UHGV virus genome: UHGV-1558260
Direction: 5' to 3' (one strand)
Source: a virus
DNA: 10,168 nucleotides
Below the pieces are notes generated by a model. The model worked only from the letters and a program-made list of their open reading frames with translations. It was not told the origin of the DNA and did no database searches. Both the position numbers and the translations under genes were made by a program. Positions 3,224 to 10,168 of this stretch are shown one piece after another; within the stretch, counting starts at the first letter, position 1; each line of letters starts with the position of its first letter.

Positions 3224-4192
3224 TTAGTAGGTTATTTTTGTTGCGAATACTTCGCCTTTTACGATGGCTGTTATGATATTTTTAGCAACATCTTCTGATG
3301 CGCCAACCTTGATAAGGTCAGCAAGTATTTTGTTATTTACTTCTTTCCGGTGAGCTTTATCCTTTGCTCTACGCTCTTCTTCGTCCTTGATTCTTTTTTC
3401 TTCTGCTATTCTGGCTTGCTCTTTTGCTTCAGCCTCGCGACGGATTCGTTCAGCCTCCTCCTGTGCTTTTCTGCGTTCTGCTTCAATTGCTGCCTGCTTT
3501 TCTCTTTCAGCTCGTTCTGCTTCCTCTTTTGCTTCGCGCTGTGCTCGTTGCTCGGCTTCAATGCGCTCACGCTCTGCACGCTCCGCTGCGGCCTTAGCTT
3601 CTGCTTCTCGCCTTGCTGCTGCTTCAATTTCGGCTTTTGCCTTTGCTTCGGCTTCTGCTCTGGCTTTCTCTTCAGCTTCTCTTTTTAAGCGTTCTTCATG
3701 CTCTCGCTTTTCCTGCTCCGCTTTGAGTCTTGCCTCTTCTCTTTGGCGGTCAAATTCGCGATCCATCAAAATCGCTATTTCATGGTCAGACTCAATTTGC
3801 TTTGCGAGAGCTTCAGCTGCTGCCTTAGCTTCTTCTTCGGCTTTAATCCGTGCCTGTTCCTCCTCATAATCAGTAAGAGGCTGGCGAGCCTTGGCTTTCA
3901 GTTCATCAAGGCGATCGCGCACTGTCTTGCGGTTGGCATCAATTAGCTTTGGAATTTCCTTCAGTTCAGCAACAAGGTCTTTGCCAAGACCATCGAGATA
4001 TGTTTTCGTCTGCGCAACTTTATACGCCAGAGAAGCGATCTCCTTTCTGCCCTTTGCCGTTGTGATATCAGGCACAAAGGACATAACTTCACGTTCAACC
4101 TTTTGGAGAATTTCTTCAATCTGGTCTGCAGACTGAAATACAGTCATTGCATTTGCTTTTTCAATAACAACTAAGTCTGTTACTTCACTCAT
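3224..4192 (-). CDS. highly charged E/R/K/A-rich coiled-coil protein (322 aa; TolA-domain-II-like central helix)
   Basis: ORF-track ORF 3224..4246 trimmed to the ATG at 4192-4190, which has GGAGG 4 nt upstream. About 170 central residues are EAEAKAKAEIEAAARREAEAKAAAERAERERIEAEQRAQREAKEEAERAEREKQ-type repeats between globular N- and C-terminal segments. Confidence 0.7.
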   Translation of the reverse strand: MSEVTDLVVIEKANAMTVFQSADQIEEILQKVEREVMSFVPDITTAKGRKEIASLAYKVAQTKTYLDGLGKDLVAELKEIPKLIDANRKTVRDRLDELKAKARQPLTDYEEEQARIKAEEEAKAAAEALAKQIESDHEIAILMDREFDRQREEARLKAEQEKREHEERLKREAEEKARAEAEAKAKAEIEAAARREAEAKAAAERAERERIEAEQRAQREAKEEAERAEREKQAAIEAERRKAQEEAERIRREAEAKEQARIAEEKRIKDEEERRAKDKAHRKEVNNKILADLIKVGASEDVAKNIITAIVKGEVFATKITY

Positions 4193-4204
4193 ATATCCTC
4201 CATC

Positions 4205-4233
4205 AAAAAAATTGCCCTCACACTGGAGGGCAA
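4205..4233 (-). terminator. intrinsic terminator (8-bp GC-rich stem, 7-U tail) 13 bp upstream of the coiled-coil gene
   Basis: Plus strand has A7 at 4205-4211 then ttgccctc-acactg-gagggcaa (4212-4233); on the minus strand this reads hairpin followed by TTTTTTT. Confidence 0.6.
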
Positions 4234-4324
4234 AGAAGATTTCCAATAATCAGAACAAGTCGGCTCCTGTTTAGTTACGAGCGACATTGCTCACATAGCA
4301 GACTCGTAAATCTGCTATAGGCGC

Positions 4325-4483
4325 TTATTCGCATCGCATGACAACATCAAATTTTTCGAGATTACTTTGTCGCAACAATCCTTCTTCTACTCGGTCAGCT
4401 TTTCTATAATTATCAAATTCGAAATGTTTAATTACTTCTTTTGTTTCTCGCTCTATAACTTCAACGATGTATCTCTTATTCAT
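4325..4483 (-). CDS. small hypothetical protein (52 aa)
   Basis: ATG at 4483-4481 overlaps the TAA of the 89-aa gene (TAATG); encodes MNKRYIVEVIERETKEVIKHFEFDNYRKADRVEEGLLRQSNLEKFDVVMRCE. Below the ORF-track length cutoff. Confidence 0.4.
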   Translation of the reverse strand: MNKRYIVEVIERETKEVIKHFEFDNYRKADRVEEGLLRQSNLEKFDVVMRCE

Positions 4484-4752
4484 TACTCATCACCTAGGGC
4501 TTTTTTGATAGCTTCGCGAGCCTTATTAACAGCTCCATACCATTCTGGATATGTTGTCGTTGTTCTATTTTCGGCTTGCTTAAGTAATAACTGAAGTGCT
4601 TCAAGTAAATCCGGTGCAGCCATAGCCAACCTTCCATTTGCTACGGCCTCTTCTGTTTCTTTACCGGATAGGGCCATTCCCGGGTGTGAAAATAAAATTA
4701 AGCCTGCAAATTGGCTTCTCGCCAATTTTTTCCTAGTACCTTTAAATTCCAT
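4483..4752 (-). CDS. hypothetical protein (89 aa)
   Basis: ORF-track ORF; AGAGG SD about 7 nt upstream of the ATG; lies immediately downstream of the 4773-4798 hairpin. Confidence 0.55.
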   Translation of the reverse strand: MEFKGTRKKLARSQFAGLILFSHPGMALSGKETEEAVANGRLAMAAPDLLEALQLLLKQAENRTTTTYPEWYGAVNKAREAIKKALGDE

Positions 4753-4772
4753 GTTAGCCTCTGTTGTTTATG

Positions 4773-4798
4773 CCAAAAGAAGGCCGACTATGCGGCCT
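4773..4798 (-). terminator. tL1-like intrinsic terminator
   Basis: aggccg-actatg-cggcct hairpin at 4781-4798; on the minus strand it is followed by TCTTTTGG (plus 4773-4780). Confidence 0.45.
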
Positions 4799-4839
4799 GT
4801 GATGTTAGATTTACTTTCATTTTTGAACGGCAGCTACAA

Positions 4840-5103
4840 TTATGATGGAATGTACAAAACCACTTTCCAGTTCATAGAAGTGGATGATGGCATAAAATAA
4901 TCCCACGACTCGTTAGCTACTAACTCTTTATTAACTGTGGTGGCAGCAATTTCGGCACCACCTTTATTATTAAAAATGTCGTTCGAATACTGACATTTTC
5001 CATCTGCATGCACATATAAAATATCATATGTCTCTGTATCGTAATCACCACTTATGTCTCTGATAACAATTCCTGGCTTCAATGATTTAATTTTCTTGTC
5101 CAT
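4840..5103 (-). CDS. hypothetical protein (87 aa), translationally coupled to N
   Basis: ATG at 5103-5101 lies 8 nt after the N stop with a GAGGTGA SD overlapping that stop; coding sequence is visibly AT-rich. No recognisable family. Confidence 0.55.
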   Translation of the reverse strand: MDKKIKSLKPGIVIRDISGDYDTETYDILYVHADGKCQYSNDIFNNKGGAEIAATTVNKELVANESWDYFMPSSTSMNWKVVLYIPS

Positions 5104-5111
5104 ATATCACC

Positions 5112-5438
5112 TCAAATAAGTGGTTTGCAGCCTAATTTCATTTTCTGGCGACCAACACAAGTCAACCCCATTTCACTACGTGGCTTGCTGTACCATGTGC
5201 GCTGATTCTTGCGCTCAATACGTTGCAGGTTGCTTTCAATCTGTTCGTGGTATTCAGCCAGCACTGTAAGGTCTATCGGATTCAGTGCGCTTTCTACTCG
5301 TGATTTCGGTTTGCGATTCAGCGAGAGAATAGGGCGGTTAACTGGTTTTGCGCTTACCCCAACCAACAGGGGATTTGCTGCTTTCCATTGAGCCTGTTTC
5401 TCTGCGCGACGTTCGCGGCGGCGTGTTTGTGCATCCAT
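5112..5438 (-). CDS. N: antitermination protein N (lambda-like)
   Basis: From the ATG at 5438-5436 the protein reads MDAQTRRRERRAEKQAQWKAANPLLVGVSAKPVNRPILSLNRKPKSRVESALNPIDLTVLAEYH..., matching lambda N; the C-terminal ~25 aa differ. The ORF-track entry 5112..5516 is an upstream extension into the leader. Confidence 0.9.
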   Translation of the reverse strand: MDAQTRRRERRAEKQAQWKAANPLLVGVSAKPVNRPILSLNRKPKSRVESALNPIDLTVLAEYHEQIESNLQRIERKNQRTWYSKPRSEMGLTCVGRQKMKLGCKPLI

Positions 5439-5596
5439 CTGGATTCTCCTGTCAGTTAGCTTTGGTTGTGTGTGGGAGTCGTAGTCCTGAACGAAAACAC
5501 CCCGCGATTGGCACATTGGCAGCTAATCCGGATTCGCACTTCCGGCCAATGCTTCGTTTCGTATCACACACACCAAAGCCTTCTGCTTTGAATGCT

Positions 5597-5627
5597 ACCC
5601 TTCTTCAGGGCTTAATTTTTAAGAGCG
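5597..5627 (-). promoter_or_regulatory. nutL: nutL (boxA CGCTCTTAAAAATTAA and boxB GCCCTGAAGAAGGGT hairpin)
   Basis: Reverse complement of 5597-5627 gives the lambda nutL boxA and boxB elements; boxB closes with a G-U pair where I recall lambda having G-C. Confidence 0.85.
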
Positions 5628-5666
5628 TCACCTTCATGGTGGTCAGTGCGTCCTGCTGATGTGCTT

Positions 5667-5729
5667 AGTATCACCGCCAGTGGTATTTATGTCAACACCG
5701 CCAGAGATAATTTATCACCGCAGATGGTT
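5667..5729 (-). promoter_or_regulatory. pL promoter with operators OL1, OL2, OL3
   Basis: TATCACCGCCAGTGGTA (5669-5685), CAACACCGCCAGAGATA (5693-5709), TATCACCGCAGATGGTT (5713-5729); minus-strand -35 TTGACA and -10 GATACT with 17-bp spacing. Confidence 0.9.
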
Positions 5730-5879
5730 ATCTGTATGTTTTTTATATAGATTTATTTTTTGCAGGGTTGTGTGGATTGGGAAGGTGATCGAGAGATCTG
5801 AATTGCGATGTTTAGTGAGTTGTATCTATTAATTTTGAAATAAATACAATTGGTTATGCGTTTTTTGGGGGCGTTAGGC

Positions 5880-5905
5880 AAAGAAAACCCGGCGCAGATG
5901 CCGGG
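5880..5905 (-). terminator. intrinsic terminator downstream of the 301-aa gene
   Basis: cccggc-gcagat-gccggg hairpin at 5888-5905; minus strand then reads TTTTCTTT (plus 5880-5887). Sits about 13 bp past the stop at 5918. Confidence 0.6.
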
Positions 5906-5917
5906 TTGTGGTGGAGA

Positions 5918-6823
5918 TCAATGCTTATTTGGGAGTGCTGGTTTTTTTATCGACTCTAATAGCTCGGAGGCGTTACTAATCTTTTTGTTCCCAAGGTAAT
6001 TTGGCAGTTTTTCCATTGCGTAATTATCGTGTAGCCATTTTCTGAACACGCCAAGTGCCTCAATAGGATAAATCCAAGCTGTTATATGCTTATTTGCAGC
6101 TGACTGCCTGTAATTTTCGGGGAATAAATGTGGGTACTGCACCCTTTCCCCGAATTTCTCAGATAGCCCATTAGCTGTCCAATACTTTCCCCAGTGAATT
6201 CCAACACTTCCATCCAAAGATGTGGTGTCATCCATTGGGAATCCTCCTCCGATCAGGTTCATGGCAATGTCAGCTATCTCTCTGAATACTGCAAAATGAG
6301 TTGTCGGTATCTGATCGTTTAGCTTAATCCTTGCTCTATAGTTCTCGAATGAGATATCTATTGAAGCATTTGGGTTGTAATTTGACTTTTCATAAATCAT
6401 TCGCTTAAGCGTGTACTCAGCCAAGCGAACAAAATTACCTATTGCGACTGACCTATCAAAATTGGTGGCATCTAGAGCGTAGTAACGGAGGATAGCCATG
6501 CAAACATAGTCAGGATAAGCATGAGTTTCCACGTTTGAGCTATTTAAAACGCGAGTGTATAGCTTTTCGACGTTATGAAACCCTTTCTCAGCTAAATACG
6601 CAGCTACTTTTTGACCTCTGGGTTTGTTTTTCTCTGTGTTCCAGTTTGATGTGAACACCCTCAGTGGCGTGTCATCAATGCCGCATAACTTTGCGAGACC
6701 GTAGAGAGTTAGGTAAGGAGTTCCATCATTGAGAACGCCCATAGGAATATCATCAGAAACAACCTCTACTACAGGGAAAAGCTGCATTTGATGCAGGGAT
6801 TCGCTATTGCTGTTAATCGACAT
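5918..6823 (-). CDS. hypothetical protein (301 aa) in the cI-to-pL interval (rexAB position); candidate exclusion/defence gene
   Basis: ORF-track ORF; AAGGAA upstream of the ATG; 86-bp spacer after the cI stop; AT-rich relative to cI. Does not resemble RexA or RexB as I recall them; no family recognised by eye. Confidence 0.7.
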   Translation of the reverse strand: MSINSNSESLHQMQLFPVVEVVSDDIPMGVLNDGTPYLTLYGLAKLCGIDDTPLRVFTSNWNTEKNKPRGQKVAAYLAEKGFHNVEKLYTRVLNSSNVETHAYPDYVCMAILRYYALDATNFDRSVAIGNFVRLAEYTLKRMIYEKSNYNPNASIDISFENYRARIKLNDQIPTTHFAVFREIADIAMNLIGGGFPMDDTTSLDGSVGIHWGKYWTANGLSEKFGERVQYPHLFPENYRQSAANKHITAWIYPIEALGVFRKWLHDNYAMEKLPNYLGNKKISNASELLESIKKPALPNKH

Positions 6824-9327: not shown

Positions 9328-10022
9328 GACAGGATATCGAAGCGAGCGTTATCGGTGGCCTGCTGATTGGTGGATTAACACCAACTGCCAGTGACGTTCT
9401 GGCAACGCTTGAGCCGGAAGCGTTTTCAATTCCGCTCTACCGGAAAGCCTTCGAGGTTATCCGGAAGCAGGCGCGAAACAGAAACCTAATCGACGCGCTG
9501 ATGGTTGCCGAGGCGTGCGGAGAGGAGCATTTCACGTCAATCCTGATGACCAGCAAAAACTGCCCGAGTGCCGCAAACCTGAAGGGATATGCCGGAATGG
9601 TCGCGGATAACTATCACCGCCGTCTGGTGCTGGAAATCATGGATGAAATGCGTGAACCAATTCAGAGCGGAACCATCGATACATCGAGTCAGGCGATGGA
9701 CGAGCTTGTAAAGCGTCTTTCAGCCATCAGAAAGCCCCGTGACGAGGTTAAACCTGTACGGTTAGGGGAAATCATCACTGACTACACTGACACGCTTGAC
9801 AGGCGTCTGAGGAACGGAGAAGAGTCCGATACCCTGAAGACCGGAATCGAAGAACTTGACGCTATCACCGGAGGGATGAACGCGGAAGACCTGGTAATTA
9901 TCGCCGCTCGTCCTGGTATGGGGAAAACCGAACTGGCGCTGAAGATTGCCGAAGGTGTTGCAAGCCGCGTTATTCCTGGTTCTGACGTCCGGAGCGGAGT
10001 ATTGATTTTCTCATGGAAATGA
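9324..10022 (+). CDS. DnaB-family replicative helicase (N-terminal domain plus Walker A); frame closes prematurely
   Basis: 232-aa ORF ending ...[24 protein letters not shown]...GVLIFSWK then stop. Walker A GMGKT present. DnaB-like peptides continue downstream in other frames (EMSA; [12 protein letters not shown]; [21 protein letters not shown] to the window end). Confidence 0.7.
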
Positions 10023-10168
10023 GCGCATGCAGATTGCAGAGCGAAGCATTGCCAACGCCGGGGAGGATGTCAGTTAGCGTGCTGCGAAAATCCTGCATCG
10101 ATGGATGACGAAGGCTGGGCGCGTGTTGCTAACGGCATGAGTCAGCTTGCAGATTTGGATGTGTGGGT

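Follow-up and report, generated by a model that had tools for sequence, protein, structure and literature searches.

The window, that is, the whole stretch of 10,168 nt analysed here from the virus genome UHGV-1558260, is the immunity and early region of an Escherichia coli lambdoid prophage, and it raises the question of what an open reading frame (ORF) of 87 codons is doing directly behind the antiterminator gene N, at 4840..5103 on the minus strand. The ORF is already known to databases, in which it occurs as a PHROG cluster and, in RefSeq, as a "hypothetical protein". Our analyses indicate that it is very probably a real gene that sits in a cassette slot and is co-transcribed with N, and that it represents an ordinary type of accessory phage gene, located within a hypervariable part of the lambdoid early operon. 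As to its product, an immediate-early inhibitor of a host defence protein is tentatively proposed by analogy. The explanation taken as a whole (accessory gene, slot, expression, mobility and counter-defence role) is given somewhat less than an even chance.

The ORF starts with ATG and runs from 5103 to 4840 on the minus strand, where the junction with N reads ...CCA CTT ATT TGA GGTGATAT ATG GAC. Exactly 8 nt separate the TGA of N (5114..5112) from the ATG (5103..5101) and the Shine-Dalgarno (SD) sequence GAGGTGA (5107..5113) straddles the N stop codon, an arrangement that the initial annotation had described and that the junction sequence bears out. This SD and initiation region is kept in every E. 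coli copy examined. The sequence TTGAGGTGA was considered as a recurrent linker before window genes and rejected, its exact copy being found only at the N/87-aa junction. The AT-rich composition noted earlier was also confirmed, with 35.2% G+C for the ORF as compared to 49.2% for N and 45.0% for the window; the neighbouring small genes are AT-rich too (32-42% G+C). In that particular frame, 87 stop-free codons occur in 5.6e-4 of composition-matched shuffles, but because an 87-codon stop-free run is found in any of the six frames of 4700-5200 in 12% of shuffles, ORF length alone is weak evidence. The ORF is rather counted as a gene because of its SD/ATG placement and its conservation in relatives.

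The 87-aa protein matches the hidden Markov model (HMM) of PHROG 33140 with an E-value of 3.4e-51 (172 bits), residues 1-87 being aligned to positions 1-88 of an 88-position profile. Homologues were found in 29 protein clusters of a collection of 5.8 billion proteins, and an exhaustive HMMER search returned 15 matches (E up to 0.001) among 1.84 billion representatives, four of which are spurious tandem-repeat proteins. Among the candidates rejected is a relationship to SprB-type repeat domains, suggested by the 5511-aa protein P0011 (E 2.6e-14), a value that results from adding up 21 weak hits on a short TYDVTVTDANGC-like motif; matches of 2986, 552 and 416 aa likewise correspond to SprB-like or artificial tandem repeats in which many weak matches add up. 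The family spans at least five genera and comprises the E. coli type, a second E. coli type of ca. 40% identity (locus L142), an Enterobacter/Pseudocitrobacter clade, Hafnia proteins and Klebsiella phage proteins. Prophages from Enterobacter, Pseudocitrobacter and Hafnia carry homologues at 30-50% identity in their early-left operons, and such homologues are present in two virulent Klebsiella phages as well.

In an alignment of 22 sequences (31-45% identity to the window protein), residues R15, S18, D27, L29, Y39, S40, F44, A50, W67 and W79 are invariant. The E. coli clade has three distinct alleles only, with at most five substitutions, and is too uniform, so that selection was measured on more distant pairs. 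Lack of conservation as a coding sequence had been set beforehand as a possible refutation; what was found is that the proportion of synonymous differences (pS) exceeds that of nonsynonymous differences (pN) in all 20 distinct codon-aligned pairs, with dN/dS, the corresponding ratio of nonsynonymous to synonymous rates, at 0.16-0.50 wherever dS was estimable (unsaturated). Variable columns are concentrated at third codon positions (70 of 78), as compared to 53 at first and 52 at second positions. The AlphaFold2 model built from the family alignment has a mean predicted local distance difference test score (pLDDT) of 89.7 and a predicted template modelling score (pTM) of 0.79. The predicted fold combines three short helices with strands at approximately residues 11-16, 26-31, 37-39 and 80-86, the first three being N-terminal and the last one C-terminal. 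The window protein is a small, soluble, acidic cytoplasmic alpha/beta protein; isoelectric points across the family range from 4.2 to 5.3, and its own net charge of -3.4 is mildly acidic. No transmembrane segment and no recognisable catalytic motif were detected in it. In the Klebsiella phage vB_KpnM_KB57, gp201 (ALM02588) belongs to the same family with 42% identity, and the two predicted folds superpose with a template modelling (TM) score of 0.75. The homologues of KB57 and KpS8 are uncharacterised and reside in runs of small hypothetical genes of 143-kb virulent Vequintavirinae genomes that have neither N nor an immunity region. Public assemblies also contain truncated or frameshifted versions of the 87-aa protein (P0002, P0003 and P0004), one of them in a complete NCBI genome; some copies of the gene are decaying or mis-assembled.

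The position of the gene was first described as an insertion into the non-coding gap that follows N in lambda. Comparison with prophages lacking the gene gives a different picture. BLAST alignments of the window to lambda, mEp043, HK544 and several E. coli prophages cross N, end a few bases into the ORF and return at a hairpin downstream; where the 87-aa gene is missing, as in mEp043, HK544 and E. coli prophages, the flanks have 95-98% identity. Relative to mEp043, HK544 and three E. coli prophages, homology breaks at 5089 or 5099 upstream and at 4820, 4797 or 4778 downstream, and the DNA specific to the cassette, which is missing from prophages with other genes at this place, corresponds to 4821..5088 (-). 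The same interval is occupied by orf28-ral in HK544 and JNE132847 and by a DUF7167 gene in FDAARGOS_1256 that is frameshifted in mEp043. In the comparison of N-downstream regions that had been proposed as a check, the 87-aa gene is variably present among otherwise near-identical prophages.

To define the occupants, IMG/VR was scanned for the boundary CCACTTATTTGAGGTGAKATATG, which was found in at least 120 contigs; all counts below are among the matches listed. ORFs starting at the boundary ATG belong to at least 12 unrelated families, so that the 87-aa gene is one of a series of interchangeable cassettes at the same ATG rather than an insertion into a lambda-like gap. The commonest occupant is orf28 followed by ral (53 contigs), then a 156-aa protein (phrog_1636; 33 contigs), an 83-aa protein (phrog_2471; 14 contigs), a 107-aa protein (phrog_1372) and a membrane protein with two transmembrane segments (phrog_3054), both in 6 contigs, and DUF7167 (2 contigs). 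Y8K6-like, 53-aa Cys-rich, 52-aa, 60-aa and 56-aa proteins occur in one contig each, as does the PHROG 33140 family. None of these occupants has a known function except Ral.

On the 3' side, the slot's shared boundary in the window is a terminator-like hairpin, AGGCCGCATAGTCGGCCT plus TCTTTTGG, at 4773..4798 (-). A hairpin of the window type or of a second type, together with a T-run and GGCATAAA, stands behind cassettes of at least eight families. In the contigs of eight families with the motif within range, the cassette is immediately followed by TTTTGGCATAAA, which is found at 204-491 nt from the ATG and is preceded by one of the two hairpin types. The 156-aa family is an exception, TTTTGGCATAAA being present in 3 of its 33 contigs and lacking within 2.5 kb in 17. 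As read from these alignments, the slot is delimited by the N stop, SD and ATG on one side and by the terminator-like hairpin on the other. The definition of this N-coupled slot, with the catalogue of its occupants, is the most useful by-product of the analysis.

Two parts of the initial reading that relied on lambda had to be modified. Homology to lambda downstream ends inside N, at ca. 5137-5182, and in lambda an ORF on the opposite strand, which we take to be sieB, abuts the N stop, contrary to the statement that lambda N is followed by non-coding sequence and tL1; a convergent N/SieB layout is annotated in locus L014. The terminator-like hairpin behind the 87-aa gene can be called tL1-like in position only, as the first element of this kind after N. 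By homology, the hairpin at 4798..4781 instead matches the one found where lambda ral ends (J02459 34095..34080).

The moron of lambdoid phages, a concept going back to Hendrix and Juhala, was the other model put forward. Like such genes, the 87-aa gene is present or absent in homologous genomes, and has an atypical G+C content (35% versus 45%). A hairpin with a T-run follows it, but this belongs to the flank common to cassettes of at least eight families, not to the 87-aa cassette. Unlike morons, the gene lacks its own promoter by a consensus scan and forms part of the early pL operon, so that a repressed prophage would not be expected to express it. Lacking such a promoter, it is not a classical moron.

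A closer parallel is offered by orf28-ral after N, as found in HK544-like phages and many E. coli prophages. This pair uses the same slot, with a 5' boundary made of the N stop, GAGGTGAKAT and the ATG, and has a 3' boundary of the same kind as that of the 87-aa cassette, namely a hairpin plus TTATTTTTGGCATAAA; in both situations co-transcription before the terminator would be expected. Ral is also a small product, but it is a 66-aa Cys-rich protein encoded after a 28-aa acidic peptide, as opposed to one alpha/beta protein of 87 aa. The ral gene of lambda is located farther from N, beyond the convergent sieB. Ral is an inhibitor of type I restriction-modification (PMC12373910). This anti-restriction activity belongs to Ral; for the 87-aa protein, the shared slot speaks for the putative roles suggested initially, namely host takeover, anti-restriction or exclusion.

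Expression of the gene would depend on the leftward promoter pL (5667..5695, minus strand), detected by a consensus scan as TTGACA-17-GATACT, the hexamers being those of lambda pL in locus L005. In the same scan, no other minus-strand promoter was found in 4200-6000, although weak or non-sigma-70 promoters could escape it. Transcription from pL would proceed through nutL, marked by a boxB-like hairpin (GCCCTGAAGAAGGGT) at 5597..5611 (-) that was found by a motif scan and has one mismatch to lambda boxB, and through the lambda-type N gene at 5112..5438 (-), whose frame is open to 5516 (Pfam N36, E 2.5e-26; phrog_271). N is considered to start with MDAQTRRR at window position 5438, following the RefSeq annotation of relatives (98%-identical locus L001). 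There is no terminator between N and the 87-aa gene. Downstream of pL, the minus strand has its first terminator-like site at 4798..4781, a hairpin and T-run located 41 nt after the ORF stop, with a 6-bp stem, a folding free energy (dG) of -9.7 kcal/mol and a z-score of -2.4 relative to shuffles.

The polymerase would therefore, by the logic of this arrangement, transcribe nutL, N and then the 87-aa gene before meeting any terminator, and ribosomes would load at the strong SD GAGGTGA overlapping the N stop. The protein would then be made within the first minutes of infection or induction, without need for N. Such immediate-early, N-independent expression is what one would naturally infer from the sequence, because N and the gene are not separated by a terminator and the gene has a strong SD of its own. 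Conversely, silence in the lysogen is expected, because pL is then repressed and the gene has no other promoter. Throughout the family, the copies in prophages lie close to the promoter of the early-left operon and upstream of its recombination genes, from which KilR and GamL separate them in two of four contexts.

The distribution of the cassette points to mobility. Of 5426 complete E. coli genomes, 8 carry the gene at full length, in contrast to 1651 genomes with a match to an N-containing query; the exact protein was further found in 668 blocks of a large assembly collection and in 12 IMG/VR contigs. The identical protein is encoded behind lambda-type N in regions where cI has RexAB, P63C or other genes as neighbours, behind an N whose arginine-rich N-terminus differs, and behind a P22-type N with a convergent SieB, in which case an 89-nt remnant of the 3' end of lambda-type N is still present upstream (L014). 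In other prophages it comes second in a stack of cassettes, after a 45-aa Cys-rich ORF and with a short remnant of the N 3' end just before the gene. In SCU-124, this 45-aa Cys-rich ORF lies between N and the 87-aa gene. Remnants of the N 3' end (...GCAAACCACTTATTTGAGGTGA...) precede stacked cassettes at 5416-5615 in L003, 3190-3245 in L142 and 5912-6000 in L014, and look like recombination footprints at the 5' boundary of the slot. Downstream, the partner of the cassette varies between Y8K6, DUF7446, DUF2528 and a 156-aa protein. In E. coli SCZE5 (L142 2908-3189), a 93-aa paralogue of ca. 40% identity starts 12 nt after the N stop, again with an overlapping SD; the N gene of this strain is truncated by an unrelated insertion, and the paralogue is followed by an N 3'-end remnant and by a gene for an Nmad5 nucleotide-modification protein. 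Lambdoid prophages would acquire the cassette from one another through recombination in its conserved flanks, i.e. the N 3' end with SD and ATG on one side and the hairpin on the other. Such exchanges would explain the identical copies behind different N types and immunity regions as well as the remnant-bearing stacks. No homologue was found on plasmids, the family being confined to phages and prophages, and there is thus no link to the anti-restriction islands of plasmid leading regions.

What the protein does is not answered by searches for known relatives. No family was assigned to it by Pfam (E up to 1) or NCBIfam (E up to 0.1); a single one of the 22 members, P0014, matches Pfam DUF3085 (E 0.01), and this was regarded as noise because it concerns only one of 22. 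None of the 22 members matches the PADLOC-DB HMMs at E up to 1. Similarity to Ral was not detected by Pfam or PHROG scans, and the Ral proteins of L007 and L008 appear unrelated by eye. Comparison of the predicted structure of the 87-aa protein matched no known fold, and the best hit of the family profile against PDB sequences (E 0.067) was rejected. No mention of the accession numbers of the family was found in the literature, and the accessory genes given in the supplements of an accessory-gene screen (Nat Commun 2025) do not include this family.

The reading that we tentatively favour is that, just as the lytic programme begins, the 87-aa protein would bind and neutralise a protein of the host or of a resident prophage, the likeliest target being a component of a restriction-like or other anti-phage system, in parallel to orf28-ral in timing and location. 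This guess is based on the slot being shared with orf28-ral, the commonest alternative occupant, on the very early expression expected, and on a rarity and rapid turnover that are typical of arms-race genes. It further draws on the Nmad5 gene being the adjacent cassette in L142 and on the presence of a homologue among the small early genes of KB57 and KpS8, virulent phages without any lysogeny to control. Gene 0.3 of T7, encoding Ocr, is an anti-restriction gene that is expressed first in a virulent phage. Both genes are promoter-proximal, would be made before the rest of the genome is exposed, and specify a small acidic product; no homology or structural match to Ocr was found, and the 87-aa protein is mildly acidic with mixed alpha/beta structure and not a DNA-mimic helix bundle. 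Its charge and structure do not match those of a DNA mimic of the Ocr/ArdA type.

Several observations weigh against this reading. The acidity of the window protein is mild, which makes DNA mimicry unlikely. The other slot occupants are uncharacterised too and the membrane-protein occupant looks more like an exclusion function, so that inference from position is weak. Rarity (8 of 5426 genomes) fits a niche function but equally a nearly neutral passenger. The hairpin is modest: its stem has 6 bp and is mismatched in some relatives, and its U-run is interrupted. A hairpin and T-run come before the family gene in Hafnia and Pseudocitrobacter prophages, which suggests that immediate-early timing may not be essential; copies of the Enterobacter type, in turn, are not coupled to an upstream ORF. 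The pre-terminator position characterises the E. coli slot rather than the family as a whole. Accordingly, of the earlier claim that the gene is made with N in the first minutes and from any pL transcript, the first half follows naturally from the operon anatomy while the second holds for the E. coli arrangement only.

Early expression suits takeover of the host equally to counter-defence, and it is possible, if rather doubtful, that the protein is a modulator of host physiology that inhibits or redirects division, replication, transcription or proteolysis, as Kil, CIII and Gam do, which are encoded farther along the same operon. The gene shares its operon with cIII-, kil- and recT-type genes, its product is small, soluble and acidic with no enzymatic signature, and a virulent phage has a homologue among its early genes. 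If the target were a conserved housekeeping function, however, the gene should be common, whereas the 87-aa gene is rare and freely replaced by unrelated cassettes, as is seen more often with arms-race genes; nor was homology to known takeover proteins found. The tight coupling to the N stop, seen in two alleles of ca. 40% identity, and the N 3' end and SD that accompany the gene in all E. coli copies could alternatively reflect a role in stabilising N, tuning antitermination or biasing the early lysis-lysogeny decision. We consider this improbable: the same ATG serves at least 12 unrelated families, so that coupling is a property of the slot, and the gene is uncoupled from a translated N behind P22-type N and SieB as well as in Enterobacter-type prophages and virulent Klebsiella phages.

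A defence or superinfection-exclusion function expressed from the prophage, as for a classical moron that benefits the lysogen, would agree with a gene that is AT-rich, variably present and followed by a terminator-like hairpin, and neighbouring slots do hold RexAB, BstA, SieB or P63C-type genes. It is nevertheless very improbable, given that no promoter-like site lies between pL and the gene and that pL is repressed in lysogens; the 22 members have no PADLOC match, no membrane segment is predicted, and a homologue is present in virulent phages. There is finally the view that the gene is a decaying or functionless passenger carried along by recombination in the flanks. This was already disfavoured and has hardly any likelihood left: the gene is rare, frameshifted and truncated copies exist (P0002-P0004) and the E. 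coli sequences vary little for measuring selection, but the family occurs in at least five genera and in virulent phage with pS > pN throughout, its core and polar residues include invariant ones, and its fold is confidently predicted.

If timing and position predict function, the slot provides a short and tractable list of counter-defence or host-takeover candidates, consisting of the 87-aa family and of the 156-, 83-, 107- and 60-aa families, for which early, N-independent expression is expected. A bolder version of the counter-defence proposal can be formulated, although we regard it as unlikely. The slot would be a plug-in dock for immediate-early counter-defence cassettes, its at least 12 occupants being mostly undiscovered anti-defence proteins, and the 87-aa protein would found a new anti-defence family with a fold unseen in the PDB, common to temperate phages of E. 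coli, Enterobacter and Hafnia and to virulent Klebsiella phages. Defining a phenotype for the 87-aa protein would also provide an annotation for related proteins, both those of prophages in Enterobacter, Hafnia and Pseudocitrobacter and those of Klebsiella phages considered for therapy.

The next gene of the operon (4483..4752, minus strand), outside the cassette, encodes an 89-aa protein of phrog_1273 that is annotated as Pfam Phage_P22_Y8K6 in relatives. Further leftward on the minus strand are a 52-aa gene, a strong hairpin at 4233..4212, a 340-aa charged protein, cIII- and kil-like genes, RecT and others. Rightward of pL are found a P63C-domain gene, cI, cro, cII, and O-like and DnaB-like genes. 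Three boxB-like matches occur in the window as compared to 0.01 expected by chance; in the boxB-like hairpin GCCCTGAAGAAGGGT the final C is replaced by T, changing the closing G-C pair into G-U.

The P63C-domain gene (301 aa; 5918-6823, minus strand) lies between cI and pL, where lambda has rexAB. In relatives, RexA/RexB, a BstA_C protein or small unknown genes are found at this position, which is a second swap site, probably for defence genes expressed in the lysogen. The 340-aa protein (3224-4246, minus strand) is encoded directly after a tL2a-like hairpin; it has a long low-complexity centre rich in Glu, Ala, Lys and Arg, belongs to phrog_1376 and resembles the Sf6 gene 33 protein, without a match in Pfam.

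Relative to the 97-98% identical locus L021, single-base insertions or deletions (indels) were located at ca. 7451 and ca. 7555, in cI, and at ca. 10013-10090, in the DnaB-like helicase gene. Four of six fall in homopolymer runs (A8 versus A7, A4 versus A3, T4 versus T3 and C4 versus C3). These indels divide cI into two ORFs and shorten the helicase ORF, reflecting either assembly error or a decaying prophage. The region 4206..5466, which includes the 87-aa gene, has no indel relative to a 98%-identical prophage.

At gathering thresholds, Rfam gave no match in the window, so that no known RNA accounts for the region, and no Rfam 15 model matches an 87-nt island at 4206-4292 (-) that is 97-99% identical to lambda J02459 ca. 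33925-34011. This island is kept in nearly every related E. coli prophage fetched even though the flanks differ, and it ends in the hairpin 4233..4212 followed by T7. The hairpin is the homologue of lambda 33952..33931, which corresponds to tL2a, the 3' end of the Hfq-binding small RNA LPR1/PreS (preprint 10.1101/2024.10.31.621285). Judging from this similarity, the window probably encodes a PreS homologue.

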